Source of the DNA: Bacteroidia bacterium
GTDB lineage: Bacteria > Bacteroidota > Bacteroidia > Palsa-965
Length of the DNA stretch: 64,000 nucleotides
Direction of reading: 5' to 3'
Assembly: GCA_044448685.1 (NCBI GenBank)
Contig: JBIOHC010000013.1
Span: 408 to 64,407, forward strand
Shown here: in pieces, positions 26,080 to 61,185 of the stretch
Layout: every line of letters starts with the position of its first letter
Position numbering within the stretch: position 1 is the first letter of the stretch
The notes under the pieces: generated by a model
Database searches by the model: none
The model's input: only the letters and a program-made list of their open reading frames with translations
Told to the model about the DNA's origin: nothing
Made by a program: the position numbers and the translations under genes

Positions 26080-29000
26080 GTGAAGCACCTCAATAGCATC
26101 ATTCTACTCGTTCTATTTTTTAGTCTTCCTGCAGAACATCTCTTTGCCCAGAATGCTACCTGGTATTTTACTTTTGCCGGTCGTGTAGAACATCCTGACG
26201 AGAAGAAAGGTAAGGATGTGGATCTGGAAGGTGCTATATGTACCCTTACCAAGAGCGGTTCCGTTGTCAGTACACAGACAACTACCAGTAGTGGTAAATT
26301 CTCCTTCCAGCTCGAACCAAATGCAGATTATGTGATTTCGTTTACCAAACCGGGGTTCATTGTGAAGAAATTTGCCATTTCCACACATAATGTGCCGGAC
26401 GACAGAGCCCAGCATGGATTCAATGAATGGAAAATTGAAGTAGTGATTTTTGAGCAATATCCCGGTCTGGATTATTCGGTGACCAACAACCCTATTGCAA
26501 AAGTTGTATTCAACGGTTCCAAGGAAGTGGACGATTTTGGGTTTGATCAGGCTTATACAGACCAGATGAAAGGCGCTCTGGCCAAGCTTCAGCAACTGGC
26601 CGATCAGGCGAGAAAGAAAGATCATGATTTTGCTGCTGCCATGACAGCGGGTGATAAAGCTTTTCAGAATAAGGACTGGGCCGGAGCCAAGGCTCAGTAT
26701 GATGCTGCTTCTGTAATTAAGCCAACAGAAAAGGCCCCTATAGACAAAAGCAAGGAATGCGCAGCCAATATCGCAGCTGATCTCAATAAAGGAAAGGCCG
26801 ATGCCGATTACAAAGCTGCCATGTCAGCAGGAGACCAAAGCCTTGGATCCAAAAGCTATGATGCAGCGAAGACTTCCTATCAGAAAGCCTTAACACTTAA
26901 ACCAGGTGACGGCCCTGCCACTCAGAAACTCAAAGATGTCGATGCAGCCATTGCCAAGGCAGCTGCCGATGCCAAAGCCAATGCCGATTATACAGCTGCC
27001 ATGGCCGAGGGAGATAAAGCTTTCGGAACTAAAGCCTGGGATGCCGCTAAAACTGCTTACAATAAAGCCCTTACGGCTAAACCCAATGACGGTCCGGCAA
27101 CCCAAAAGCTCAAGGATGTGGATACCGCAATGTCTGCAGAGAAGGCCAATGCCAAAAAAGATGCTGATTATAAAGCAGCTATGGCTGATGGGGACAAAGC
27201 CTTCGGAACCAAAGGATGGGATGCTGCCAAAGCAGCCTATAACAAAGCTCTGGGCATTAAACCGAATGATCCTCCTGCCACGCAAAAATTAAAAGATGTG
27301 GATGCTGCCATTGCTGCGGATAAGGCTAACGCAAAGAAAGATGCAGATTATACGGCTGCTATGGCTGAAGGAGATAAAGCATTCGTTGCTAAGACCTGGG
27401 ATGCTGCCAAAACAGCTTACAATAAAGCACTTTCTTTGAAGCCGGGGGATGCTCCGGCTACTCAGAAACTCAAAGATGTGGATGCTGCCATTGCAGCCGA
27501 TAAAGCCAACGCCAAGAAAGATGCTGATTATACCGCAGCAATGGCTGAAGGAGACAAAGCTTTCGGAACCAAAACCTGGGATGCTGCTAAAACTGCTTAC
27601 AATAAAGCACTCACACTTAAAGCCGGTGACCCGCCTGCTACCCAGAAACTTAAAGATGTTGACGCAGCCATTGCAGCCGATAAAGCCAATGCAAAGAAGG
27701 ATGCCGATTATACTGCTGCCATGGCTGAAGGAGACAAAGCCTTTGGTACAAAGACCTGGGATGCTGCTAAAGCGGCTTACAATAAAGCACTGACACTGAA
27801 AGCCGGTGACCCGCCTGCAACCCAGAAACTCAAAGATGTGGATGCTGCTATTGCCGCAGATAAAGCCAATGCAAAAAAGGATGCCGATTATACCGCTGCC
27901 ATGGCAGAAGGAGATAAAGCCTTCGGTACCAAAACCTGGGATGCTGCCAAAGCTGGCTACAATAAAGCCTTGGCTCTTAAGCCAGGCGATGGCCCCGCAA
28001 CTCAGAAACTAAAAGATGTGGATGCTGCCATTTCTGCAGATAAAGCTAATGCAAAGAAAGATGCTGATTATACCGCGGCTATGGCCGAGGGGGACAAGGC
28101 TTTTGGAACCAAGACCTGGGATGCCGCTAAAACTGCTTACAATAAAGCCCTTTCATTTAAACCTGGCGATGCTCCTGCTACACAGAAACTGAAAGATGTG
28201 GATGCCGCTATTGCCGCTGATAAAGCCAATGTAAAGAAGGATGCCGACTATGCTGCAGCCATGGCCGACGGAGACAAAGCATTCGGTGCCAAAACCTGGG
28301 ATGCCGCCAAAACTGCTTATAACAAGGCACTCGTTGCCAAACCCGGTGATGCCCCTGCTACGCAGAAACTAAAAGATGTAGATGCTGCCATTGCAGCAGA
28401 TAAAGCCAATGCAAAAAAAGATGCCGATTATAAGACAGCAATGGCCGAAGGTGATAAAGCATTTGGCGCAAAGACGTGGGAAGCCGCCAAAGCTGCTTAT
28501 AACAAAGCCCTCGTTGCCAAACCCGGTGATGCCCCGGCTACACAGAAGCTCAAAGATGTGGATACGGCAATTGCTGCAGAGAAATCCAAAGGGCAACTCG
28601 AGGCCGATTATAAAGCTGCCATGGCCGACGGAGACAAAGCATTCGGTACCAAGACCTGGGATGCCGCCAAAACGGCTTACAACAAAGCCCTCGTTGCCAA
28701 ACCCGGTGATGCTCCCGCTACTCAGAAACTCAAAGACATAGACGCTGCCATTGCAGCGGATAAACTCAACGGTCAAAAAGAAGCCGACTACAAAGCAGCA
28801 ATGGATGCCGGAAACCAAAACTTTGGTACCAAGACCTGGGATGCTGCGAAAGCCAGCTATCAGAAAGCGCTCACCGCCAAGCCCGGGGATGTTCCTGCAA
28901 CTCAAAAGCTGAAAGAAGTAGATGCTGCCATTGCAGCCGATAAGCTCAATGGACAAAAGGATGCTGAATACAAAGCAGCCATGGATGCCGGAAACCAAAG

Positions 29001-31353
29001 TTTCGGAACAAAGGCCTGGGACGCAGCAAAAACAAGTTATCAGAAAGCCCTCACAGCTAAACCAGGTGATGCGCCCGCAACCCAGAAATTAAAAGATGTG
29101 GATGCAGCCATCGCACTTGAAAAAGGGTTGAAAGCTAAAGAAGCCCAATATACCGCTGCCCTTAAAAAGGGGGACGATGGCATGAAGGCTAAGAAATACG
29201 ATGATGCAAAAGCAGCTTATACAGAGGCGACAGGCCTTAAACCCGATGAACAACTTCCTAAAGATAAGCTGAAAGAGATTGCCAATATTCAGAATGCGCT
29301 CCTGGGTGTTGAAGCAAAGAACAAAGCATACCAGGCCGCTATTTTAAAAGCTGATGCGGCTTTCAAAGCAAAGGATTACAACCCTGCCAGAACAGCCTAT
29401 ACTGAAGCTTCCGGCATTAAACCAGATGAAGCATATCCCAAGAGTCAGCTCAAGGCTATTGATGACGCAATCAACAAAGACAAAGATGCAGAAGCAAAGT
29501 ATACTGCGGCTATTCAGAAGGGATCCGATGCTTTTGGTAAAAAGGATTATGCAGAGGCAAAATCAGCCTATACAGAAGCCAGCGGTATAAAACCTGCTGA
29601 GCAGATGCCAAAAGATAAAATTAAGGAATGTGAAAAGTTTCTGGCCGATGCGTTGCTGAAAGAGAAAGATGCCAAAGCCAAAGAAGCTCAATATATTGCT
29701 GCACTCAAAAAAGGTGAGGATGGCATGAAAGCCAAAAAATATGATGTTGCCAAAGCCGCCTATACGGAAGCTACCGGATTAAAACCGGATGAACAGCTCC
29801 CTAAAGACAAGCTGAAAGAAATAGGTGATCTTCAGAATGCGCTCCTCGGTGCAGAAGCCAAGAACAAAGCCTATCAGGCTGCGATCCTTAAAGCCGATGC
29901 GGCTTTCAAAACCAGGGATTACAATCCAGCTAAGACTTCGTATACGGAAGCATCTGGCATAAAACCCGATGAAGCTTACCCGAAAAATCAGTTAAAAGCT
30001 ATTGAAGAAGCATTGAACAAGGATGCTGCTGCTGCTGCTAAGTATACGGCTGCCATTAAAGCCGGTGACGATGCTTTTAATGCAAAGGATTATCCAAAAG
30101 CAAAAACATCCTATACCGAAGCAAGTTCACTCAAATCGGCAGAGCAATATCCTAAGGACAGGATCAGAGAGTGTGACAAACTGATTGCCGATAACCTGAA
30201 AAACGGTCAGGCTGAAACTGAGTACAAAGTTGCCATTGCTGCCGGTGATAAAGCATTCGATGCTAAATCCTGGGATGCGGCCAAAATCTCCTTCCAGAAA
30301 GCTTCGGGATTAAAACCTGCAGAACAATATCCTAAAGACAAACTAAAGCTGATAGAAGATCAGCTCAAAGGCGCTGATGCGATCAAAGTCAAAAATGCCA
30401 AATACACGGCAGCTCTTGTAAAGGCTGATGCCGCTTTCAAACTCAAGAAGTGGGATGATGCAAAAGCCGGTTATACCGAGGCTCAGAGTCTTAAGCCTGA
30501 TGAAGAATACCCTCCGGGCCGTTTGAAAGAGATTGATGAAGCTATTCTTCGTGACAAACAAAATCAGGATGTAAACGGCCGTTATTTCAATGCCATGTCA
30601 AAAGGGAATGAGGCACTCGGAGGAAAAGAATATGCTAAAGCCAAAGCCGCATTTGAAGAAGCTCTTTTGATTAAAACCGGCGATGTGCCAGCCAAAACAA
30701 AACTGGATCAGGTCGTTGCTTTGATGACCAAGGAGGAAAAGGACAAAGCCATTATGGGTCAATACAATAAGTTTATTATGGACGGAGACAAGGCCATGGG
30801 CAAGGAAGATTATCCGGTTGCAAAAACGAATTATTCAGAAGCAAGCAAACTGAGACCAGAGCAGGTTTATCCCAAGGATCAGCTGGCGCAAATCAATATT
30901 CTGATAGCCGGTAAGGATAAACGGGATGCTAAGTACAAGGCTGCCATAGCAAAAGGAGATAAATTATTCACCACCAAAGATTTTGCGAATGCGAAAATTG
31001 CCTATCAGGAAGCAAGTGATACAAAACCAAATGATGCAGTAGCCAAACAAAAGATCAGAGATTGTGATGATGCCATCAATAAGCTCATGGTCAAAAACGG
31101 AACAAATCAGGTAGTACCCCATGATGTCCAGTCAACAAAAAGTCTGCTTGCTCAGAAATATGGAGAAGGCATTCATGAATTGCCCGAAACTCAGGAAGTC
31201 AACTGCAAGGTTTTGACCCGTATTGTGGTACATGGCTCTGAAGGGCATAAATACACTCAAAAGACTTACAGTTATGGTCAGACATACTGGTTCAAGGATG
31301 ATGACAGTATCACCCAGAACATTTTTGAAGTGGAAACAGCCTCCAATCATTAA
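26080..31353 (+). CDS. giant secreted repeat protein: CarboxypepD_reg-like N domain, 25 TPR-like ~60-aa repeats, and an unassigned ~90-aa C-terminal domain
   Basis: A GTG at 26080 gives a signal peptide (VKHLNSIILLVLFFSLPAEHLFAQ); the ORF-track start is GTG 25993. The repeat motif is DADYxAAMAEGDKAFGTKTWDAAKTAYNKALxxKPGDAPATQKLKDVDAAIAADKANAKK. Confidence 0.85.
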   Translation: MKHLNSIILLVLFFSLPAEHLFAQNATWYFTFAGRVEHPDEKKGKDVDLEGAICTLTKSGSVVSTQTTTSSGKFSFQLEPNADYVISFTKPGFIVKKFAISTHNVPDDRAQHGFNEWKIEVVIFEQYPGLDYSVTNNPIAKVVFNGSKEVDDFGFDQAYTDQMKGALAKLQQLADQARKKDHDFAAAMTAGDKAFQNKDWAGAKAQYDAASVIKPTEKAPIDKSKECAANIAADLNKGKADADYKAAMSAGDQSLGSKSYDAAKTSYQKALTLKPGDGPATQKLKDVDAAIAKAAADAKANADYTAAMAEGDKAFGTKAWDAAKTAYNKALTAKPNDGPATQKLKDVDTAMSAEKANAKKDADYKAAMADGDKAFGTKGWDAAKAAYNKALGIKPNDPPATQKLKDVDAAIAADKANAKKDADYTAAMAEGDKAFVAKTWDAAKTAYNKALSLKPGDAPATQKLKDVDAAIAADKANAKKDADYTAAMAEGDKAFGTKTWDAAKTAYNKALTLKAGDPPATQKLKDVDAAIAADKANAKKDADYTAAMAEGDKAFGTKTWDAAKAAYNKALTLKAGDPPATQKLKDVDAAIAADKANAKKDADYTAAMAEGDKAFGTKTWDAAKAGYNKALALKPGDGPATQKLKDVDAAISADKANAKKDADYTAAMAEGDKAFGTKTWDAAKTAYNKALSFKPGDAPATQKLKDVDAAIAADKANVKKDADYAAAMADGDKAFGAKTWDAAKTAYNKALVAKPGDAPATQKLKDVDAAIAADKANAKKDADYKTAMAEGDKAFGAKTWEAAKAAYNKALVAKPGDAPATQKLKDVDTAIAAEKSKGQLEADYKAAMADGDKAFGTKTWDAAKTAYNKALVAKPGDAPATQKLKDIDAAIAADKLNGQKEADYKAAMDAGNQNFGTKTWDAAKASYQKALTAKPGDVPATQKLKEVDAAIAADKLNGQKDAEYKAAMDAGNQSFGTKAWDAAKTSYQKALTAKPGDAPATQKLKDVDAAIALEKGLKAKEAQYTAALKKGDDGMKAKKYDDAKAAYTEATGLKPDEQLPKDKLKEIANIQNALLGVEAKNKAYQAAILKADAAFKAKDYNPARTAYTEASGIKPDEAYPKSQLKAIDDAINKDKDAEAKYTAAIQKGSDAFGKKDYAEAKSAYTEASGIKPAEQMPKDKIKECEKFLADALLKEKDAKAKEAQYIAALKKGEDGMKAKKYDVAKAAYTEATGLKPDEQLPKDKLKEIGDLQNALLGAEAKNKAYQAAILKADAAFKTRDYNPAKTSYTEASGIKPDEAYPKNQLKAIEEALNKDAAAAAKYTAAIKAGDDAFNAKDYPKAKTSYTEASSLKSAEQYPKDRIRECDKLIADNLKNGQAETEYKVAIAAGDKAFDAKSWDAAKISFQKASGLKPAEQYPKDKLKLIEDQLKGADAIKVKNAKYTAALVKADAAFKLKKWDDAKAGYTEAQSLKPDEEYPPGRLKEIDEAILRDKQNQDVNGRYFNAMSKGNEALGGKEYAKAKAAFEEALLIKTGDVPAKTKLDQVVALMTKEEKDKAIMGQYNKFIMDGDKAMGKEDYPVAKTNYSEASKLRPEQVYPKDQLAQINILIAGKDKRDAKYKAAIAKGDKLFTTKDFANAKIAYQEASDTKPNDAVAKQKIRDCDDAINKLMVKNGTNQVVPHDVQSTKSLLAQKYGEGIHELPETQEVNCKVLTRIVVHGSEGHKYTQKTYSYGQTYWFKDDDSITQNIFEVETASNH
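26620..31090 (+). repeat. intragenic tandem repeat region (25 units; 13 of them with a strict 180-bp period)
   Basis: I counted the units directly in the translated ORF. Antisense and off-frame ORFs in the track (26890-27285, 28369-28998 and others) are by-products of the period. Confidence 0.9.
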
Positions 31354-43819: not shown

Positions 43820-46345
43820 ATGGCTGAAGGAGAAAAAATAATTCCGATAAACATTGAAAATGAGATGCAGACCTCGTATATCGATTATGCGATGTCAGTC
43901 ATTGTGTCGCGTGCTTTACCGGATGTACGTGACGGATTAAAACCCGTTCACCGCAGGGTTCTCTTCGGTATGCTTGATCTGGGGGTTCTTTCCAACCGCC
44001 CTTATAAGAAATCAGCCCGTATAGTAGGGGAGGTCCTGGGTAAATACCACCCCCATGGTGATACCTCCGTTTATGATGCCATGGTGCGTATGGCTCAGGA
44101 ATGGAGCCTGCGTTACCCCCTGGTTGACGGGCAGGGTAACTTCGGTTCGGTTGATGGTGATCCACCGGCTGCCATGCGTTATACAGAAGCCCGTCTTCGG
44201 AAAATTGCCGAGGAAATGCTGGGCGATATAGAAAAGGATACCGTCGACTTCAGACCTAACTTCGACGACTCTCTGGAAGAACCGACCGTTCTTCCAACCC
44301 GGGTTCCCAACCTGTTGGTTAACGGAGCTTCCGGTATTGCCGTAGGTATGGCTACCAATATGCCTCCGCATAACCTCCGGGAGATAGTGGATGCCTGTAT
44401 TGCCTATATTGACAATAAGGATATTGATCTTGCCGGCCTGCTCCAGTATGTCAAAGCCCCTGATTTCCCAACAGGTGGTATCATATACGGTTACCAGGGT
44501 GTCAAAGATGCGTTCGAAACAGGAAGAGGACGTATCGTAATGCGCGCCAAAACAAATATTGAAATCCACAACGACAGGGAACGTCTCATTGTCACCGAAA
44601 TTCCTTACCAGGTGAACAAGGCTCAGATGATCGAGAATACGGCCGCCCTCATCAATGACAAGAAAATTGAAGGTATAAGTGCCCTGCGCGATGAAAGCGA
44701 CAGGGATGGAATGCGTATTGTTTATGAAATAAAACGCGATGCTATTACCAATGTGGTTCTGAATAACCTGTTCAAATACACTGCATTACAGACTGCCTTC
44801 AGCGTTAATAATATTGCCCTTGTAGCCGGACGGCCGGTTATGCTTAACCTCAAAACCCTTGTCGGACATTTTATCGATTTCAGGCATGAGGTTGTTATAC
44901 GCCGTACACGCTATGAACTGGATCAGGCTCAGAAAAGAGCCCATATCCTGCAAGGATACCTTATTGCACTTGATCACCTGGATGAAGTAATCAAACTCAT
45001 TCGCGAATCCAAAACTCCGAACGAAGCCCAGGAGCAGCTTATTATCCGTTTTGCCCTCAGCGAGATACAGAGTAAGGCCATTCTCGAAATGCGTCTCCGT
45101 GTATTGACAGGCCTGGAAAGAGACAAGATCAAGTCTGAATACGATGACCTGATGAAACTCATCACCTACCTCAATGAAGTCCTGGCTGAAGAACCTCTCC
45201 GTATGGAAATCATCAAGTCAGAACTCCTGGAAGTAAAGGAGAAATACGGAGATGAACGTAAAACAGTGATAGAATTTGCTTCCGGCGATCAGCGCATGGA
45301 AGACCTCATAGCCGATGAAGATGTGGTAATCACCATCTCGCATATGGGATATATCAAACGTACCCTTCTGAGTGAATACCGTACCCAGGCAAGAGGAGGG
45401 AAGGGCTCAAAAGGAACAGCTACCCGTGATGAGGATTTCCTGGAACATCTGTTTGTAGCCACCAACCATAACTACCTCCTGTTCTTTACCGAGCAGGGAC
45501 GTTGTTTCTGGATGAGGGCCTATGAAATTCCGGAAGGAAACAAAGCCAGCAAGGGCAGGGCTATTCAAAACCTGATCAATATTCCACAGGATGATAAGGT
45601 GAAGGCATATATAAATGTCAAGAACCTCACAGATGAAGAATATGTCAGGAACAATTTCATCATTATGTGTACCAAGAATGGTATCATCAAGAAAACAAGC
45701 CTGGAAGATTATTCCCGTCCAAGGGCGAATGGTATCAATGCCATAACCGTACGCGACGGAGATTCCCTGCTCGAAGCCCGCTTAACAAGTGGAAAGGATG
45801 AAATCATGCTTGCTTCCAAGCTGGGCAAGGTGGTCCGTTTTAACGAAACCAAGGTCCGCCCTATGGGCCGTAATGCTTCCGGTGTAAGAGGTATCAATCT
45901 GGAAGATGAAAGCGGCGCTCCGAATGAAGTTATAGGTATGATTACCATTGCCAGTCCTGAAACCAATGTATTGGTTGTGTCTGAAAAAGGATTCGGTAAA
46001 CGCTCCGATATAGAAGAATACAGGGTTACCAACAGGGGCGGTAAAGGGGTAAAAACCCTCAATGTGACGGATAAGACAGGTAACCTTATCTCTATCAAGG
46101 ATGTGGATGACAATAAGGATCTGATGATTATCACCAAGTCGGGAATAGCAATACGCCTTGCCGTAAAAGACCTGAGAGTAATAGGCAGGGCTACCCAGGG
46201 TGTCAGACTGATAAACCTGGCCGAAACTGATGAGATAGCATCTGTTGCCAAAGTGGATGTTGATCCGGAAGAGGAAAAAGCCCAGCCGGAAGAAAATGGT
46301 GAAAATTATGAAAATGGAGAAACTCCTGCGTCTGATGATAAATAG
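43820..46345 (+). CDS. gyrA: DNA gyrase subunit A
   Basis: Canonical GyrA N-terminus ([28 protein letters not shown]), active-site region [10 protein letters not shown], beta-pinwheel C-terminal domain and an acidic tail. Confidence 0.97.
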
Positions 46346-46431: not shown

Positions 46432-47700
46432 ATGAAGAAACACCTCATCATCCTTTCAGCGATGAGCCTCCTTACAGGTATGAGTATGGCCCAGTCGAGC
46501 AAACGAACTACTGCTCATAATGCCCTGGAAGATTATAAGCGGTATAAAGAAGTGGATGCCCTTAAAAAGGCCCGGGAAAACATAGATGCAGCATCCCTGC
46601 ATGCAGAAACAGGGGTGGAAGCCAAAACCTGGGTATACCGTGGAGAAATCTATCTTGTTTCCTATGAAAACAGTCTTCAGCAGGAAGAAGCAAAGCAAAA
46701 AGATGTAAGCGACCCAAAGAAAAAGAACATGGTCGCCTATAGCAATACCTCTTTGGCAGAGCTTCAGACTTCTTATGAAAGCTATCTCAAAGCCAGGGAA
46801 TATGACAAAAAAAAGATCTATACCGAGGAAATTGGAAGCGCCCTTCCACGTATTATGATACATTTTGACAATAAAGGAGTGGCTGACTATAACTCTAAAC
46901 AACTGGCAACAGCGGCCATAAGCTTTGAAAAATGTTATGAGGTAAGCCAACAAATGGGACACCCCGATACCTCCGTACTGAATAATGCTGCGATGACCTA
47001 CAGACTGGCAGGTGATCTGCCTAAGTCTATTGAGATCTATAAAAAGCTGGTAGCCATGGGATTCGGAAAAGGAAAGACAGTAGCTATCCTTTCCAATGTA
47101 TATGTGGCAAATAAGGATACGGCAGCAGCGCTTACCCTGGTAGCGGCCGAACGCGCCAAATACCCTAATGACGGAGATCTGATTGTAAACGAAACACAAC
47201 TGTTTCTGTGGACCAAGAAGCGCAAGGAGGCTCTCGCCAACCTTCAGAATCTGATAGCCAAGAATCCTAACGATTCCACCATGAATATGCTGGTTGGCAG
47301 TACCTATGATAATATGGCTAACCCCAAGGATGATAAAGGGAATGATTTACCGCCTCCTCCTGAACAGACAGAATATTTCAACCAGGCTGTTACTTATTAC
47401 AAAAAAGCCATTGAAATCAAACCTGATTATTTCAAAGCCCTTTTTAACCTCGGAATCCTCTATTTTAACCGGGGAGCCAAAATGTATAATAAGGCCAATA
47501 ATATCAAGGAAGCTGCTTTGTATGCAAAGGAGAGCAAAAAGGCAGATGATGAGTTTAAACTAGCCTTGCCTTATATGGAAAAAGCTCACCAGGTAATGCC
47601 TAAAGATAAGGATACGATGAAGGCACTTAAAACATTGTATTCCAGAACGGAACAGCAAGCCAAATACGATAAGATCGTAGAGGAACTAAAGAATAACTGA
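46432..47700 (+). CDS. TPR-repeat lipoprotein-like protein
   Basis: Signal peptide and TPR-like units (for example YFKALFNLGILYFNRG). Confidence 0.8.
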   Translation: MKKHLIILSAMSLLTGMSMAQSSKRTTAHNALEDYKRYKEVDALKKARENIDAASLHAETGVEAKTWVYRGEIYLVSYENSLQQEEAKQKDVSDPKKKNMVAYSNTSLAELQTSYESYLKAREYDKKKIYTEEIGSALPRIMIHFDNKGVADYNSKQLATAAISFEKCYEVSQQMGHPDTSVLNNAAMTYRLAGDLPKSIEIYKKLVAMGFGKGKTVAILSNVYVANKDTAAALTLVAAERAKYPNDGDLIVNETQLFLWTKKRKEALANLQNLIAKNPNDSTMNMLVGSTYDNMANPKDDKGNDLPPPPEQTEYFNQAVTYYKKAIEIKPDYFKALFNLGILYFNRGAKMYNKANNIKEAALYAKESKKADDEFKLALPYMEKAHQVMPKDKDTMKALKTLYSRTEQQAKYDKIVEELKNN

Positions 47701-47720
47701 TCCAATCAGATATTCGTTAA

Positions 47721-47746
47721 AAGCGGAAGCGATTCCGCTTTTTTTA
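47721..47746. terminator. bidirectional hairpin terminator
   Basis: AAGCGGAA-GCGA-TTCCGCTT 8-bp stem with a T-run on the plus strand and TTTT on the minus strand. Lies between convergent stops. Confidence 0.7.
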
Positions 47747-47747
47747 T

Positions 47748-48059
47748 TTAGGCCGGGATGGAAACCTCAACTTTATCCAGACCGCTGGGAGGCATTACAA
47801 ACTTTCCTTTGGGGTAGAACGAACCTTCAATATACATCACTTCTCTCATTTCATCCAGGGGGAAACATCTCCAGTTAAGCTCGGTTTCCCGGGCAATACC
47901 GCTTTCATCTTCCCCGGCGAACTGATAGAAAAACCCATGTGCCACCCCTTTAATTGAACCAATCTGATGAGGGCAAAGCTGGCGTTTGTACCCGTTGTAA
48001 ACAGCATAAATCTGTTGTTTGTTGGTTATGGCTTTCTGGACGGTAACGTAGTTACTCAT
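47748..48059 (-). CDS. small hypothetical protein (103 aa), possibly a WYL/SH3-like beta-barrel
   Basis: The internal ATG at 48059 gives MSNYVTVQKAI.... The pattern Y-x-G-x-x-R-x-x-x-PH ... YQFAG-x-x-x-SG ... WRCF-x-L-x-x-M resembles small WYL-like proteins. The fold call is tentative. Confidence 0.5.
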   Translation of the reverse strand: MSNYVTVQKAITNKQQIYAVYNGYKRQLCPHQIGSIKGVAHGFFYQFAGEDESGIARETELNWRCFPLDEMREVMYIEGSFYPKGKFVMPPSGLDKVEVSIPA

Positions 48060-48270
48060 GGGTGGGGGTAGGATTAAGAGCGAAGGTACCCTTTTATTTC
48101 TCCTTCTTTTTTGCTTGAGCAAAAAAGAAGCAAAAAACTCAAGACGGCACGATTCCTGCCGCACCGGCTACACGACATCGTGCGCCGTCAGGGCGTACAC
48201 GCCTATGAATGGCATCATTCTGGGGTGGCTCTGCAGGAGCTTTATCACATGCCTCCCGAATAGGGGTAGT

Positions 48271-48399
48271 TTGTCATTCCGAGGCACTTTGGGGTTGAAT
48301 TGAGCGGGGTAGTGCCGAAGAATCTCCTTGGACTTTCGGCGTTTTACTTTTCTTTGCCAACCACGCAAAGAAAAGTAACAAAAGAAAAGTCACCACGAA
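48271..48399 (+). repeat. REP/MITE-like element, copy 1 of a 128-129-bp direct duplication
   Basis: TTGTCATTCCGAGGCACTTTGGGGTTGAATTGAGCGGGGTAGTGCCGAAGAATCTCC...GTCACCACGAA recurs at 48506-48633 with two substitutions and one 1-nt indel. Confidence 0.85.
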
Positions 48400-48476
48400 A
48401 AACCAACCGGAAGCTTTCGCCTTGCACAGTCAGCGCGTCTACGCCGCGAAACTTCCGGTTCGCACTTTTTCGTGGT
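48391..48476. other. long imperfect hairpin (~27 bp paired in three helical segments)
   Basis: CACCACGAAAAA/TTTTTCGTGGT, AACCGGAAG/CTTCCGGTT and TTTCGC/GCGAAA are nested around a 25-nt GC-rich loop. Confidence 0.6.
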
Positions 48477-48505
48477 CTCCCTCACACGGGGCTAATTGAT
48501 TGGAA

Positions 48506-48633
48506 TTGTCATTCCGAGGCACTTTGGGGTTGAATTGAGCGGGGCAGTGCCGAAGAATCTCCTTGGACTTTCGGCGTTTTACTTTTCTTTGCCAACCACG
48601 CAAAAAAAAGTAACAAAAGAAAAGTCACCACGA
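48506..48633 (+). repeat. REP/MITE-like element, copy 2
   Basis: Near-identical to 48271-48399 and offset by 235 bp. Confidence 0.85.
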
Positions 48634-48666
48634 ATGACTATATACCTGACAATCCTTATATTTACA

Positions 48667-48694
48667 ATTTAACATAATGTTAATTATGGATAAA
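48667..48694 (-). other. dif: candidate dif (XerC/XerD chromosome dimer resolution) site
   Basis: Minus-strand 28-mer TTTATCCATAA-TTAACA-TTATGTTAAAT. The XerD arm is 11/11 identical to E. coli dif, and the XerC arm shares CATAA. It sits in an AT-rich intergenic stretch at a convergent gene junction. Confidence 0.65.
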
Positions 48695-48719: not shown

Positions 48720-49458
48720 CGACATTCATTTTGGTCCGTTCAAGTCAAAACGTTCGTTATCGGACATCGATCCTTATCCATTGGAATTCAACCCTTATCC
48801 ATGTTGATTCTAACCTTATCTGTTGTAGGTCTACCCTTATCCGTTTTATATCTACCGTTATCCATTTGGAATCAATCCTTTTCCATTTCAAATCAAACCT
48901 TGTTCGTTAAATGTCAACCTTTATCCATGTTATGTCTAACTTTTTTCAGTTTACATCAAACTTTGTCCGGTTCGATTAAAACCTTACCTGTTTAATGTCT
49001 AACCTTATACAGTTGAATTCAACCCTTATTCATGTCAATTCTAATCGTCTTCATTTTAAATCAATCCTTGAACGTTTCAATTCAAATCTTGACGATTTCA
49101 ATTCAACCGTTGTTCACTGAATGTCTAACCTTAAGCATTTTAAGTCAATCTTAAATAGTATCAGGATTCTCCCGAACCGGTTAAACACTATCCTATACAG
49201 GATGTTATTAATCCGAAACCGGATCATTTCTATCCCGATCCGGATATTATCAATCCGAAGCCGGATCGTTTCAACCCCGATCCGGGCGTTATCAACCTGT
49301 AACCGGGTCTTTTCAATCCCGAATCGGGCATTATCAGATCGAAACCGGGTCGTTTCAATCCCAATCCGGGCATTATCTGGCCTAAACCGGATCCTTTCAA
49401 TCCCGATCCGGGCATTATCTGCCCTAAACCGGATGATATCAATTCCATGCAGGCGGGT
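48720..49458 (+). repeat. array of about 35 head-to-tail degenerate 20-22-bp (mode 21) repeats
   Basis: I segmented it by eye into consecutive units, for example GAATTCAACCCTTATCCATGTT / GATTCTAACCTTATCTGTTGTA / GGTCTACCCTTATCCGTTTTA ... TTATCAATCCGAAGCCGGATCG / TTTCAACCCCGATCCGGGCG. All units share a TC(A/T)A(Y)CC block. Confidence 0.85.
49205..49436. repeat. 42-bp super-repeat sub-array forming tandem CCGGATC-stem hairpins
   Basis: Pairs CCGGATC(A/G/C)-TTTC(T/A)A(T/C)CCC-GATCCGG occur at about 49219-49244, 49261-49286 and 49387-49412, with weaker versions at about 49303-49328 and 49345-49370. Confidence 0.7.
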
Positions 49459-49508
49459 TTAGTCAGCTACCCTGCTTAACATAATATTCGATTGATTATC
49501 AATAGAAT

Positions 49509-49570: not shown

Positions 49571-52500
49571 TTAGTTTCTGATCAGCATAAAGGATCCGTT
49601 AAAGGCATATTGTCTGCCATCGTCCCCGGAGGCTGTGATGATATAAAAATAAGTTCCGGGAACAGCAAGTGCACCACCCGGAGTTCGTCCGTCCCAACCC
49701 ATACCGGCAGCCGTCAATGTAATCAGTTCTACACCCCAGCGGTCATAGATCTTACCCTCAAACTTGGAAATTCCCTGGGAAGACACAACAAAAAGGTCAT
49801 TGGAGCCATCGTCATTCGGTGTAAACACATTCGGAACCTTTATCCAGGAAGGGAGCTCCTTAATGACAATAACCCGTGAATAAGTACTCGTACAACCGGT
49901 GATGGTATCAGTCACGGTCAATGTTACGGTATAGTTCCCGCCTGTGGCATAGGTATGACCAGCTCCGGTACCGGTGGTGTTTTCATTGCTCGTGGTTCCA
50001 TCCCCATAATTCCAGTCCCATTCACTTGAATTAGCCGAACTGCTGTCAGCAAAAGTGATGGGCAAAGGCATTGTGCCGGTGGTGGCACTTGGAATAAATC
50101 CGGCCTGGACCGTGTTCTCCGTTACATTGAAATGGGCGGTGTCCGTACCACAATTATTAGTCACAAGTACATAGTAAGGGCCACCGGTGCTGACCACGAT
50201 ACTGGAAGTTGTGGCACCGGTACTCCATACATAAGTACCTCCCCCGCTTGCATTAAGAATATCGGTTGAGCCTTTACAGAAGGCCGGAGGACCGGTAACA
50301 AGTGATTTTGGGAGAGAATCGCGTATGAGGGTGATTTTAGTTGAGTCAACACCACAGGAATTGATGGCATATAAGGTAAAGGTGCCGCCTGTTCCTGCTA
50401 CAATCGATGTGGCAGCCGAACCGGTATTCCAGGAATAGGTACTGCCTCCGGAAGCGGTGAGCGTTACAGGATTCCCGAAACAGAATGTCGTAGGTCCGCT
50501 GGGTGTAATCAAGGCCACAGGTTTTACTCCTGTATTCTTTACACTATCCACAACCTGGAATGTACATCCTGCTGAATCCGTAACAGTACAGGTATAGGAA
50601 TTCTTAGGCAGGCTTCCGGCATTACCGCTTACTGTTCCTGTAGCAGGCGCCGGTGACCAGGCATACGTGTAAGTGGCTGTTCCACCGCTTGGAGTCACGT
50701 TCATACTTCCATTACTGAGGTTACAGGTACTGGATGTGCTGACATCTGAAGCAGTCAACGGAGACGGCTGGATGATAGTGAGAATCTGCTGCTTGCTGCA
50801 TCCATGTGCATCTGTCATTGTACATGTATACGTACCGGCACAAAGTGAAGATGCTGTTTGGGTGAGGCTCGGGCTTCCAACCCAGGCATAAGTAAAGGCA
50901 CCGGTACCTCCGCTGGGTACAACAGTAGCTGAACCGTTACAGGCTCCGTTACAAAGTACCTTCTGTGTGGTTGCTACATCTGTTATAGGTGCAGGCTGTG
51001 TGATGGTGAAAACCTGCTGAGTCGGGCAACCGTTTGCATCGGTAACATGACAGGTATATGTTCCCTGGCACAAAGCAGTGACACCGGGTGTAGTGGCTGT
51101 GTTGGGAGACCAGGAATAGGTATACGCACTTGTTCCTCCGCTTACCGTAGCTGTTGCAGTGCCATCACAGACGGCATTGCAACTGGTATTGGTTGATGCC
51201 GGTGAAATGGACAAGGCCGCAGGTTGTGTCAATGTTATTGTTTGGGTAGTACTGCAGCCGGCTGCATCTTTCACCGTACAGATATAGCTTGTTCCAGCGC
51301 AGAGGTTATTGGCAGTACCGGTAGTGCTTGGGTTGCTTGTCCAGGAATATGTAAGCGGAGCTGTTCCGCCGCTTCCGGTCACAGTTGCAGTTCCGTTGCA
51401 ACTTGCATTACAAGTCGGATTCGCTGATGAAGCCACAGATGCAGAAGGACCTCCTACGTTATTCACCGGAACAATGGTATTCTGTGTACAGCCTTTGGAA
51501 TCGGTTACCGTAACAGTGTAGTTACCGGCTGATAAGTTAATAGCCGTTGGCGTTGTCTGGCCTGCAGCAGGAGCAGGTGTCCAGGCATAGGTATAAGGTC
51601 CGGTACCTCCGCTGGCTGTGCCGGTTGCCGATCCGTTTGTACCACCGCAGTTGGCCGATGTTGAAGATGGAGCAACGGCAAGCACTGCAGGCTGAGTGAT
51701 GTTAAAGATCTGCTGGGTGGTACAACCGTTACCATCCTTAGCAATACACGTATAAGTACCGGCACAGAGGTTATTCGCCGTACTTGTGATACTCGGGTTG
51801 GTGATCCAGCTATAGGTATAAGGTCCTGTTCCTCCGCTTACGTTGATAGTAGCTGTTCCGTTACAGGAAGCATTGCAGGACGCATTGGCTGTGACACCCG
51901 GAGTTGAGCTTGGCCCGGCTGTGGTAGAGACAGCAATAATCGTTTGCTTGGTACATCCTTTTGAATCGGTTACGGTAACGGTATAGTTACCGGCCGGTAA
52001 GTTAACGGCCGTAGCGGTTGTTTGTCCTGCAGCAGGTGCAGGAGTCCAGGCATAAGTATAACCTCCGTTTCCACCCGAAGCTGTAACTCCGGCTGAGCCG
52101 TTTGAACTGCCGCAAGTAGCAGCTACAGAACTGGGTGTTGTGGCAAGAGCTATAGGTTGGGTAATTGTTACAGTCGTTGTGGAAGTACATCCGTTAGCTG
52201 TGGTAACAAGACAGGAATAGGTTCCGGCCGGAAGTCCGACCGTGGTAGGATTTGTTCCTCCCCCACCCGACCAGGAATAGGTATAGCCGGGAGTGCCGCC
52301 GGTGGCGTTAGCAGTACCGGTTCCATTCGTACCACCGTTACAGGATACAGCAGTTGTTGAATTGGTTAAGGTAGCTGAATTACCCACATTCACCGTTGTT
52401 GTCGCCGTACTGGTACAGCTGCCCTGGGTTTCTGTAACAGTATAGGTGGTTGTGGAGGCAGGGGAAGCATTGACTGATGATCCTGTTGTGCCACTTAATC

Positions 52501-53560
52501 CGGTAGAAGGGCTCCAGACGAAGGTTCCTGAACCGGTAGCATTGAGCGTAACACTTCCGGCTCCGTTACAAACGGTAGGTGCAAGCGGACTCACTGTTGT
52601 AGGTGTGTTCGGGTTTACAGTTACCGTTGTGGTGCTGGTATAGGTGGTGGTTGCACCATCGCAATTGGTGACAACCATGGTAGCAGTATAGGTGGAAGTT
52701 GTAGTTGGGCAAACACTTACACTTGCACCGCTGCCTACCACCCCGCTTGGGCCTGTCCAGGTAATTGTATAAGATGGAGCACCGGTCGGTGAAAATCTCC
52801 AGGCTTCATTAACGGCTGACCATGCTGAAGGGTAGTTACGCCCGGGAGGAACAACAGCAACAGTACCGGTCTGATTCTGGATACCGATGATTCCGGCACC
52901 ACCATTCCATCCACTGCAGGAATAGCTGTTCTGAAGATATACATCAATATAATTCGTATTCTCATACAGGACCAGCTGTACCGTCGAGTTCGGAGTTCCG
53001 TCACAAATTCCGCTCCCTTTATCAAACAAAGGCACATTCACCCAGCTCATCACCAGCGCATGACAGGGTGCTGAACCCAGTGTGGTGATGTAGGAGTTAC
53101 CTCCAATACCCTGGTCCATATCACGGAATGCGGCGCAAATGGTATTGCCGGGAAGATCAGTGGTATTGGGCAATGAAGTGCTAAGGGAATAGTTATCATA
53201 CCCGCTTGAATTGGTCAGGTCAAAGGTGAGTTCACCGTTATCACCTAATACAGCCTGGTTGTACCAGTTACCGAAATAACAGAAGTTAAAGCCCAGATTG
53301 ACGGTACTGCTCCATACATCATCGGCACCTACAAGGATAGAAGAACCGGTGAAAGGATAAGGAGCATAGGGAATGGCACTGACAGTATAGGATGTGGTCT
53401 GGTTATTCGAGACCACTGCCGCATTCAGTGTGGCACAAGCCCCCTGACAAATTGTTTGAGGGCTGCCGGCATTGACAGAGGGGCATGCCGGTGCGCCTTG
53501 TGCATGGAAACCGAGACTTCGGAATACAAGCAAGCACAGAAAAAATAGTTTTTTCTTCAA
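49571..53560 (-). CDS. T9SS-secreted cell-surface adhesin: N-terminal unassigned domain, 8 SprB-type repeats, PKD domain, type-B (CHU_C) C-terminal sorting domain
   Basis: Repeats C-N-x-x-x-N-G-x-x-x-x-x-x-SGGTGPYTYSW and GTYTCxVTDxNGC. PKD segment WDWNYGDG...HTYATGGNYTVTLTV. C-terminal domain VPNVFTPNDDGSNDLF...GTYFYII. A probable TTG start at 53560 gives MKKKLFFLCLL; the ORF-track start is 53644. Confidence 0.9.
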   Translation of the reverse strand: MKKKLFFLCLLVFRSLGFHAQGAPACPSVNAGSPQTICQGACATLNAAVVSNNQTTSYTVSAIPYAPYPFTGSSILVGADDVWSSTVNLGFNFCYFGNWYNQAVLGDNGELTFDLTNSSGYDNYSLSTSLPNTTDLPGNTICAAFRDMDQGIGGNSYITTLGSAPCHALVMSWVNVPLFDKGSGICDGTPNSTVQLVLYENTNYIDVYLQNSYSCSGWNGGAGIIGIQNQTGTVAVVPPGRNYPSAWSAVNEAWRFSPTGAPSYTITWTGPSGVVGSGASVSVCPTTTSTYTATMVVTNCDGATTTYTSTTTVTVNPNTPTTVSPLAPTVCNGAGSVTLNATGSGTFVWSPSTGLSGTTGSSVNASPASTTTYTVTETQGSCTSTATTTVNVGNSATLTNSTTAVSCNGGTNGTGTANATGGTPGYTYSWSGGGGTNPTTVGLPAGTYSCLVTTANGCTSTTTVTITQPIALATTPSSVAATCGSSNGSAGVTASGGNGGYTYAWTPAPAAGQTTATAVNLPAGNYTVTVTDSKGCTKQTIIAVSTTAGPSSTPGVTANASCNASCNGTATINVSGGTGPYTYSWITNPSITSTANNLCAGTYTCIAKDGNGCTTQQIFNITQPAVLAVAPSSTSANCGGTNGSATGTASGGTGPYTYAWTPAPAAGQTTPTAINLSAGNYTVTVTDSKGCTQNTIVPVNNVGGPSASVASSANPTCNASCNGTATVTGSGGTAPLTYSWTSNPSTTGTANNLCAGTSYICTVKDAAGCSTTQTITLTQPAALSISPASTNTSCNAVCDGTATATVSGGTSAYTYSWSPNTATTPGVTALCQGTYTCHVTDANGCPTQQVFTITQPAPITDVATTQKVLCNGACNGSATVVPSGGTGAFTYAWVGSPSLTQTASSLCAGTYTCTMTDAHGCSKQQILTIIQPSPLTASDVSTSSTCNLSNGSMNVTPSGGTATYTYAWSPAPATGTVSGNAGSLPKNSYTCTVTDSAGCTFQVVDSVKNTGVKPVALITPSGPTTFCFGNPVTLTASGGSTYSWNTGSAATSIVAGTGGTFTLYAINSCGVDSTKITLIRDSLPKSLVTGPPAFCKGSTDILNASGGGTYVWSTGATTSSIVVSTGGPYYVLVTNNCGTDTAHFNVTENTVQAGFIPSATTGTMPLPITFADSSSANSSEWDWNYGDGTTSNENTTGTGAGHTYATGGNYTVTLTVTDTITGCTSTYSRVIVIKELPSWIKVPNVFTPNDDGSNDLFVVSSQGISKFEGKIYDRWGVELITLTAAGMGWDGRTPGGALAVPGTYFYIITASGDDGRQYAFNGSFMLIRN

Positions 53561-53731
53561 GGAGATGTGTGTTTTTATACTAAAAAAAGCGATTAATGCG
53601 GATAAATGATTGACTAATATAGGAATTATAAAGCTGATTACCAATTAACGACATCCAATTTCATGAACAATTTAGGAGTGATAAGTCGATCAAGATACTA
53701 TTAAGCGTATGTGACTCAATAATTAAGACAT

Positions 53732-59056: not shown

Positions 59057-60328
59057 ATGAATTTCGACGAACTCCAGTTACATCCTCTGCTGATTGAAGC
59101 CATCAGTTATGCGAATTATGTGAAAGCCACACCTATTCAGGAAATGAGCATTCCTATTATTCTGCAGGGCCGTGATCTGATAGGCTGTGCTCAAACCGGG
59201 ACCGGCAAAACAGCTGCTTTTGCCTTGCCGGTGATGAGCAAATTGCTGGAAAAGGAAGTGCACGGTACCCAGGCATTGATCATTGTTCCTACCCGTGAGC
59301 TGGCTATACAGATTGCTCAATGGATGGACGGACTATCCTATTTCACCAATATCAGCGCTATGGCTGTCTACGGCGGAGGGGATGGCATTTCGTTTGAACA
59401 GGAAAAAACGGCATTCACCAAGGGTGCCAATATTATTATTGCCACTCCGGGCCGGCTGCAAAGTCATATCAACCTGGGCTATGTCAATTTTTCAGGACTT
59501 AAATTCCTTATCCTCGATGAAGCCGACCGTATGCTGGATATGGGCTTTTTTGACGATATCATGCGGGTGATCAATATTGTTCCCAAAGAGCGTCAGACAC
59601 TCCTTTTCTCTGCCACCATGCCGGCCAAAATACGTCAGCTGGCAAGTAAAATCCTTCGTGATCCGGCAGAAGTAAGCATAGCCATTTCCAAACCTGCCGA
59701 AGGAGTTGTGCAGGGTGCTTATCTGGCCTATGATGCCCAAAAGGTGCCGCTTATCAAACAACTACTCGCCGGTAAGGAAGATGAACTCAAAAGTGTCATC
59801 ATCTTTGCTTCCCGTAAAGAGACCGTAAAGAGCCTCGAAAATGAACTCAAGAAACAAAGGCTGAAAGTACGCTCCATACACAGTGATCTGGAGCAAAGCG
59901 AACGGGAAGAAGTGATGCGTATGTTTAAAAGCCGTCAGATTCAGGCCCTTGTAGCCACTGATATTGTTTCCAGGGGAATTGACATTGACGATATAGGCCT
60001 GGTAATCAATTTTGACGTTCCCGGTGATGCGGAAGACTATATACACCGTATTGGACGTACAGCCCGTGCCGAATCAACCGGTGTGGCGCTTTCCTTTATC
60101 AATGATAAGGATACGGACAAGTTTATGCGCATAGAGCAATTCCTGGGCAAAACCGTTCAGAAAATACCACTTCCGGAAGGGATGGGAGAAGGCCCTGCCT
60201 ATGTTTCAAGGCCTAAAGGCAGCGGAGGAGGATTTCATCGTAAAGGCTCCGGCTCAGGAGGTCATAAAGGAGGAGGAGGTAAATCCGGTTTTCAACGTCG
60301 CAGCCCGAATAAGACCCAGGGGAGGTAA
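59057..60328 (+). CDS. DEAD-box ATP-dependent RNA helicase with Gly-rich basic tail
   Basis: Q-motif, AQTGTGKTAAF, DEAD, SAT, HRIGRTAR. Confidence 0.93.
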   Translation: MNFDELQLHPLLIEAISYANYVKATPIQEMSIPIILQGRDLIGCAQTGTGKTAAFALPVMSKLLEKEVHGTQALIIVPTRELAIQIAQWMDGLSYFTNISAMAVYGGGDGISFEQEKTAFTKGANIIIATPGRLQSHINLGYVNFSGLKFLILDEADRMLDMGFFDDIMRVINIVPKERQTLLFSATMPAKIRQLASKILRDPAEVSIAISKPAEGVVQGAYLAYDAQKVPLIKQLLAGKEDELKSVIIFASRKETVKSLENELKKQRLKVRSIHSDLEQSEREEVMRMFKSRQIQALVATDIVSRGIDIDDIGLVINFDVPGDAEDYIHRIGRTARAESTGVALSFINDKDTDKFMRIEQFLGKTVQKIPLPEGMGEGPAYVSRPKGSGGGFHRKGSGSGGHKGGGGKSGFQRRSPNKTQGR

Positions 60329-60955: not shown

Positions 60956-61165
60956 CTGTCATTCTGAGTCGCCTTGGGGTGGCTTTGCGAGATGAACACG
61001 CTTTGTCATTCTGAGCGACCTTGGGGCAGCATCGTGGGAAGCAGACGCGAAGAATCTATCCGGGTTGTGCAAATAATTATTAAAATCACGAAACTCTTAT
61101 TCTAACTCCAATAGATTCTTCGGCACTGCTCACACACTTTACAACCCCAAGGTGCCTCAGAATGA
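60956..61165. repeat. REP/MITE-like composite: two direct partial copies plus one inverted copy of the GTCATTCYGAG...CGAAGAATCT element
   Basis: 60956-60983 and 61003-61059 lie on the plus strand, and 61111-61165 is inverted. The reverse complement of 61111-61165 closely matches 48273-48325. Confidence 0.7.
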
Positions 61166-61185
61166 AAAATTCCCCGAATAAACAC

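Follow-up and report, generated by a model that had tools for sequence, protein, structure and literature searches.

The window, i.e., the whole 64,000-nucleotide stretch of DNA analysed here, contains a 28-bp sequence that is very likely the dif site of the chromosome and hence the target of the tyrosine recombinases XerC and XerD, located where the two replichores join or close to that point. It consists of two 11-bp, partly palindromic arms with a 6-bp central region between them, and its parts are the following.

48667-48694, minus strand: candidate dif site of 28 bp, TTTATCCATAA-TTAACA-TTATGTTAAAT; the plus strand reads ATTTAACATAATGTTAATTATGGATAAA.
48667-48677, minus strand: predicted XerD-binding arm TTATGTTAAAT, proximal to the TPR gene and gyrA, identical to E. 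coli dif in 11/11 positions.
48678-48683, minus strand: 6-bp centre TTAACA, the predicted strand-exchange region, read from the sequence.
48684-48694, minus strand: predicted XerC-binding arm TTTATCCATAA, in which the inner CATAA is kept and the outer six nucleotides vary among lineages.

As judged by sequence comparison, the 28-mer is the orthologue of a dif-type site that is seen once per assembly in at least 120 other genomes. The site itself is an ordinary, known element. New are its linkage to gyrA and to a gene encoding a TPR protein as well as the variability of the DNA on its XerC side.

A sequence-only reading of this DNA had described a dif-like site here, and most of its details were borne out: the minus strand carries the 28-mer as described, the arm said to be identical to the XerD arm of E. 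coli dif is so in all 11 positions and is the sole exact copy of TTATGTTAAAT in the 64-kb window, and the left arm, said to end in CATAA as in E. coli, is identical in this inner part of the XerC arm. The palindrome that was said to flank the 6-bp core is correct for the 5-mers CATAA and TTATG, whereas the 6-mers CATAAT and ATTATG overlap the centre. Likewise, the expectation of 0.03 occurrences given for the 11-mer applies to an exact match, but shuffled sequences yield 2.5 matches per window when up to one mismatch is allowed, and therefore the XerD arm, taken by itself, is less telling than it seems. Compared to E. coli dif, the 28-mer has the same length, the same 11-6-11 layout and the same intergenic type of location, and polar G-rich octamers converge on the site as in E. 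coli, which was seen here in the relatives. It differs in that only 20/28 positions are identical overall, with 6/11 in the XerC arm and 3/6 in the centre, so that the differences lie in the outer XerC arm and the central region.

The frequency of near matches to the 11-mer, together with the AT-rich and intergenic surroundings close to terminators, would be in line with a chance AT-rich palindrome or a part of a transcription terminator that has no role in recombination. However, the 22-base core CATAATTNNNATTATGTTAAAT has one match with 0 mismatches in the window, where 0.02 matches are expected even at up to three mismatches, and the expectation for an exact 22-nt core is far below 0.02. 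A weight matrix derived from 50 sites, which had been found independently by ascertainment on the TPR protein, assigns 34.1 bits to the 28-mer and -0.6 to the next unrelated position, and by core pattern and weight matrix the 28-mer is the sole such site in the 64-kb window. Moreover, the core is invariant in relatives whose flanks cannot be aligned (see below), and within the phylum each genome has a single copy of the motif among the at least 120 matches listed. The core statistics and the conservation therefore exclude an origin by chance, to which we assign next to no probability. A search of Rfam gave no match in the gap around the 28-mer. The stretch was not found in any public sequencing run, nor were its GyrA and CoaBC found on contigs on record.

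The 28-mer also agrees with published predictions. For 19 genomes of Bacteroidetes, dif was predicted by Kono et al. (2011; PMC3025954, supplement 2), among others in Cytophaga hutchinsonii (TTGTTATATAATTTACATTATGTTAAAT), Pedobacter heparinus (TAGTCACATAATTAATATTATGTTAAGT) and Chitinophaga pinensis (AATACTTATAATTTATATTATGTTAAAT). The arm TTATGTTAAAT, which is also the cross-phylum consensus of the XerD arm, is shared by most of these predicted sites, and in complete genomes the predictions of the type of the 28-mer are 0.001-7.9 units away from the shift point of the GC skew (PMC3025954). The 28-mer resembles the predicted dif of C. hutchinsonii and P. heparinus and has the same core as the predicted Bacteroidetes sites, [CT]ATAATT-N-A-N-ATTATGTTAA[AG]T, but its outer XerC arm is TTTATC instead of the common TTGTC[CT]. 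The central region in the relatives reads TTAACA, TTAATA, TTTATA or TTAGCA. The assignment as a dif-like site is thus in accordance with the published Bacteroidetes predictions, with the score of the weight matrix and with the island of orthologous sequence that is described below.

The 28-mer lies in an intergenic gap between two convergent groups of genes, and its neighbourhood comprises the following features.

43820-46345, plus strand: gyrA (NCBIfam gyrA equivalog, 1221 bits), the anchor gene on the XerD-arm side.
46432-47700, plus strand: gene for a TPR protein (Pfam TPR) that carries a signal peptide.
47719-47742, plus strand: intrinsic terminator of the TPR gene; the closest relative, L074, has an equivalent hairpin between its TPR gene and dif.
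47748-48640, no strand assigned: lineage-specific insertion between TPR and dif, made up of a 103-aa ORF and two copies of a 129-bp repeat.
47748-48059, minus strand: the 103-aa ORF, for which neither Pfam nor NCBIfam gave a match.
48271-48399 and 48506-48634: the two copies of the 129-bp repeat, between the TPR gene and dif.
48745-49488, no strand assigned: two phased arrays with a period of 21/42 bp on the XerC-arm side, neighbours of the 28-mer and not part of it.
49571-53644, minus strand: gene for an SprB/CHU_C adhesin (type IX secretion), on the XerC-arm side.

Beyond the adhesin gene the minus strand encodes a 95-aa ORF, PorD (DUF4835), coaBC, rpoZ and bamD. The distance from the TPR stop codon to the adhesin stop codon is 1.87 kb, of which about 1.5 kb remain when the possible 103-aa ORF is taken off, and this matches the gene-free gap of 1.5 kb described before. 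The earlier tally of coding strands, two-thirds plus to the left and three-quarters minus to the right of the 28-mer, is close to the measured 63 and 75% of coding bases, respectively. The TPR stop codon is 967 bp away from the 28-mer, compared to 45-250 bp in the relatives and to approximately 100 bp for the predicted Bacteroidetes dif sites. A different intergenic gap contains a third, partial copy of the 129-bp repeat (61104-61175) in reverse orientation, and the repeat is therefore a small dispersed one. The whole insertion at 47748-48640 is absent from the relatives L074, L122, and L123, whereas the metagenome contig L156 contains parts of it, including a part of the 103-aa ORF. The 42-bp periodicity of the arrays recurs more weakly in L074; as a general companion of dif the 21-bp arrays were discarded, as they were seen in the closest relative and perhaps in a few others of the at least 120 dif loci. 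None of the 47 ORFs of the window encodes XerC, XerD, FtsK or any recombinase; homologs of XerC and XerD are reported in Bacteroidetes generally (PMC3091885).

Three family-level relatives, L074 (the MAG "Bacteroidetes bacterium palsa_965", with a GyrA 89.5% identical to that of the window) and the metagenome loci L122 and L123, are syntenic to the window on both sides, with clpB-gyrA-TPR, the site, and orf95-PorD-coaBC-rpoZ-bamD in this order. PorD adjoining the site was found in family-level relatives only. Compared to these three loci, the window has two additions on the XerC side, the two arrays with 21-bp period and the adhesin gene. The sequence-only reading had proposed to align the orthologous gyrA-proximal gap, and in the resulting four-way alignment (window, L074, L122, L123) the position of the site is kept while the flanks diverge: the invariant island CATAATTA[A/G]CATTATGTTAAAT stands out from a gap that is otherwise unalignable, and 22 contiguous positions are kept, with the exception of an A-to-G change in the central region of L122. 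The outer six nucleotides of the XerC arm (48684-48689 in the window) lie outside of this island and read TTTATC in the window, TCAAAC in L074 and L123, and AATTCG in L122. A further locus with a near-identical 28-mer (L083, 27/28) proved to be non-syntenic and unremarkable. The metagenome locus with the highest TPR identity (L121, 60%) has gyrA upstream; the linkage is broken in this lineage, because neither a dif-like site nor any shared genes are present downstream.

On the far side of the 21-bp arrays there is a second, incomplete motif.

49474-49501, minus strand: degenerate XerD-arm-like half-site TTATGTTAAGC, oriented like dif.

The exact 10-mer ATTATGTTAA occurs at two places in the 64 kb, in dif and at 49476-49485, which bracket the 21-bp arrays. 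Microviruses of Bacteroidetes were reported to integrate at dif-like sites (Krupovic and Forterre, 2011, PMC3091885), and in agreement with this at least 116 viral contigs of IMG/VR carry sites of the class of the 28-mer. A recurrent form, TTGTCTTATAATTACCATTATGTTAAAT, is found on short contigs with a tailed-phage terminase among the largest ORFs, and the sampled ORFs comprise tailed-phage terminase, portal proteins, and one PHROG "major head protein" (phrog_514). The 28-mer could hence stem from an integrated Xer-exploiting mobile element (IMEX), as its attachment scar or as a hybrid site, or it could be an accessory Xer site of the plasmid type, instead of an ancestral chromosomal dif, and the outer XerC arm, which varies among close relatives, would fit such an origin. 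The attachment sites of microviruses and IMEX (PMC3091885) belong to the same motif family, and the half-site, 0.8 kb off and in direct orientation, recalls their two-site flanking. They differ from the situation in the window in that no element genes are present here between the two motifs and in that the main site is ancestral and syntenic: L074, L122, and L123 keep the XerD arm and the main site at the orthologous position and have no half-site. Furthermore, the half-site matches the XerD arm in 9/11 positions, lacks a XerC arm and has a spacing of 11 nt instead of 6, for which reasons an IMEX element flanked by two full dif-like sites was rejected. We therefore regard an origin of the 28-mer as scar or accessory site as very unlikely and return to the 28-mer as an ancestral dif.

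The motif class was followed across genomes with the pattern CCATAATTNNNATTATGTTAAAT in one genome per species. The scan returned at least 120 loci from as many different assemblies, with one match each among the matches listed, and among these nearly all belong to Bacteroidota and a few to Pseudoalteromonas. Each locus was oriented on its site before the flanks were measured. The mean GC skew of the oriented loci is +0.052 to the left and -0.060 to the right of the site, with a higher value on the left in 66/72 loci, and 69% of the coding is on the plus strand to the left compared to 25% to the right. When the effect of the gene strand is separated, the skew at 4-fold sites in the relatives is still +0.050 to the left of the site and -0.045 to its right, and the flip of the GC skew also holds in 78 genome loci without gyrA synteny. 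Such a change from plus to minus across the sites of the class is the signature of a terminus and the opposite of that of an origin.

This bears on the idea that the gap is a replication origin, with TTATCC-type repeats as DnaA boxes and the 28-mer as an AT-rich unwinding element. The XerC arm does contain TTATCCATA, which is one mismatch away from a DnaA box, and the core of the adjacent array is CTTATCCAT. However, within the gap and outside of the 103-aa ORF there is a single DnaA box TTATCCACA (up to one mismatch), which belongs to the XerC arm of dif, and none was found in the 21-bp arrays at the same threshold. In addition, the genes converge on the site and do not diverge from it, the orthologous sites show the same plus-to-minus skew as those of the whole class, and the left 48 kb of the window are polarised towards the site, which excludes an origin. 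With no cluster of DnaA boxes in the gap and a converging polarity, the oriC reading was dismissed as extremely improbable.

As a control, 80 metagenome loci were ascertained by the TPR protein alone, of which 71 have at least 300 bp downstream. These loci were found using an alignment of seven TPR sequences (A2), whereas an alignment of 22 sequences was too divergent. Among them, the loci with a site have a mean GC skew of -0.047 beyond it, with negative values in 21/27 and 34% plus-strand coding, whereas the loci without a site have a mean of +0.054, negative values in 3/12 and 65% plus-strand coding (Mann-Whitney p = 0.0003). The polarity flip tracks the 28-mer and not the gyrA-TPR pair.

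Polar words give the same direction. In an unbiased 8-mer screen on the flanks of the relatives, in which leading and lagging counts of co-oriented and anti-oriented genes were combined, the octamers GGGTAGGG (48:0), TAGGGGAG (68:1), and AGGGGAGG (82:0) are strongly polar, and they are so in both gene classes. The KOPS consensus of E. coli, GGGNAGGG, which had been chosen in advance, occurs 174 times on the leading and 20 times on the lagging strand in the relatives (0.90), and 43:8 and 44:5 times on the two flanks of the non-syntenic loci; in E. coli its leading-strand fraction is 0.91 (PMC3384302). As octamers of the same composition have a mean leading-strand fraction of 0.83 compared to the 0.90 of GGGNAGGG, the latter is a polarity marker and not a demonstrated guide motif. 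A role of GGGNAGGG as phylum-specific guide motif of FtsK was therefore discarded, and no single motif can be named.

In the window itself the GC skew does not reveal the junction. A switch at 48.7 kb was not seen in the 64 kb, neither in the raw skew nor at 4-fold sites nor per gene; the decomposition of 4-fold sites gives -0.04 and +0.01, and the values per gene are too scattered (p = 0.63). The local GC skew cannot place a switch because it is swamped by three genes with strongly negative coding-strand skew at 4-fold sites, which encode a TPR protein of 1595 aa (26566-31353; -0.46), the adhesin (-0.36), and GyrA (-0.26). The GC skew is flat in L122 and L123, too, and the cumulative gene-strand walk of the window peaks at 37.5 kb, away from the 28-mer. 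Since the local GC skew is uninformative, the polar words were examined.

24969, 31458, 36309, 36542, 44129, 45398, 45553, plus strand, and 23871, minus strand: GGGNAGGG to the left of the site.
54109 and the overlapping pair 58650 and 58656, minus strand, and none on the plus strand: GGGNAGGG to the right of the site.

GGGNAGGG thus has a plus-to-minus ratio of 7:1 left of the site and of 0:3 right of it, with a flip between 45553 and 54109, an interval that contains the site. Fisher's test gives p = 0.024, and p rises to approximately 0.07 when the overlapping pair is treated as a single match or when the three matches in gyrA are dropped; these three of the seven left-side matches may be conserved coding sequence. 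One copy of AGGGGAGG, at 60318, has the polarity opposite to that expected. A looser G-rich marker, at least six G in eight positions, is confounded by the coding strand (0.73 in co-oriented compared to 0.52 in anti-oriented genes); when stratified by gene strand it favours the plus strand as leading on the left, where the log-likelihoods differ by about 10 in a manual calculation, and it is indecisive or slightly in favour of no switch on the 15-kb right flank. On these right 15 kb, GGGNAGGG and the 75% of minus-strand coding point towards the site, and the GC skew and the loose marker are uninformative. For a switch exactly at the site, the window thus offers modest evidence of its own, to which orthology is added. 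The replication terminus that had been proposed from the sequence alone is supported mainly by the relatives and, within the window, by the left 48 kb, with weak support from the right 15 kb and no local switch of the GC skew.

It is conceivable that the 28-mer is a genuine Xer site that does not lie at the replichore junction in this genome, either due to a rearrangement or with a second functional dif at the true terminus. The window without a GC-skew switch, the ambiguous polarity of the right flank with the loose marker, the insertions on both sides of the site and the loss of the gyrA-TPR-dif linkage in some relatives, e.g., L121, are all compatible with such a displacement. However, the polarity of the left flank is directed at the site, across which GGGNAGGG changes strand, the genes converge on it, both flanks are syntenic to those of the relatives, in which the polarity flip accompanies the site, and no assembly has two matches among the at least 120 matches listed. 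A displaced site is therefore unlikely, and the replichore junction is probably located at the 28-mer.

The linkage of dif to gyrA and the TPR gene extends far beyond the family. Among the 120 matches listed, a gyrA homolog adjoins the site in 36 loci and a TPR homolog in 40, and the arrangement of gyrA, TPR and dif was reckoned to hold in 36-42. In most of these loci the distance between the TPR stop codon and the site is 58-250 bp. The XerD arm is the gyrA-proximal one in 36/36 and 40/40 of the loci linked to gyrA and TPR, respectively, with a constant orientation of the genes, and the identity of GyrA goes down to 56% in the linked loci. According to their record titles, these include Bacteroidales, Chitinophagales, Cytophagales (Shiella), Sphingobacteriales (Daejeonella), and one Flavobacteriales MAG. 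As these first loci had been picked by the motif, the linkage was tested again on the TPR-ascertained loci, where sites with up to four mismatches in 20 were regarded as dif-like. Such a site is found in the orientation of the TPR gene and within 300 bp downstream of it in 42/71 loci and further off in 8/71, and 21/71 have none. On the XerC side, by contrast, the first ORF falls into 52 unrelated clusters in 72 gyrA-TPR loci, the largest of which has six members, and synteny is therefore kept on one side of dif only. The order clpB, divergent gyrA, TPR and dif with the XerD arm nearest is an old one in Bacteroidota, and the window contains the local copy of this arrangement. No description of a gyrA-dif linkage in Bacteroidota was found in the literature searched, and the parts of the text of Kono et al. 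(2011) that were searched do not mention the gyrA-TPR linkage (PMC3025954).

The linkage and the asymmetry are present in the loci as they stand; the mechanism behind them is a matter of conjecture. Tentatively, dif might be an ancient one-sided synteny anchor that kept its place 45-250 bp behind gyrA-TPR, with the XerD arm nearest, from a time before Bacteroidales, Chitinophagales, Cytophagales, Sphingobacteriales, and Flavobacteriales separated, and its XerC side a hot spot of turnover that is remodelled by Xer-exploiting elements. Such elements might integrate repeatedly, decay, leave DNA behind on the XerC side and swap the outer XerC arm, which would explain the differences in the outer arm as well as the degenerate half-site beyond the 21-bp arrays.

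To our knowledge, dimer resolution in Bacteroidota has never been examined by experiment. If the 28-mer works like other dif sites, recombination between sister chromosomes may leave a dimer, which dif would resolve. FtsK at the septum would pump the DNA, in a direction set by the polar G-rich motifs, until two copies of dif meet. XerD would then bind TTATGTTAAAT and XerC TTTATCCATAA, FtsK would activate XerD for the exchange of the first pair of strands, and XerC would presumably exchange the second across TTAACA.

The annotation of dif as such is routine; it shows where dimers would be resolved, and where replication probably terminates, in the genome of an uncultured member of Bacteroidota. 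Beyond this, the gyrA-TPR pair provides a gene landmark for dif, and hence for the replichore junction, in many fragmented MAGs of Bacteroidota, and the phylum shows a strong polarity of G-rich octamers, the KOPS consensus of E. coli among them, in the direction of dif. The synteny that is restricted to the XerD-arm side is a hint that mobile elements exploiting Xer may remodel one side of the terminus.
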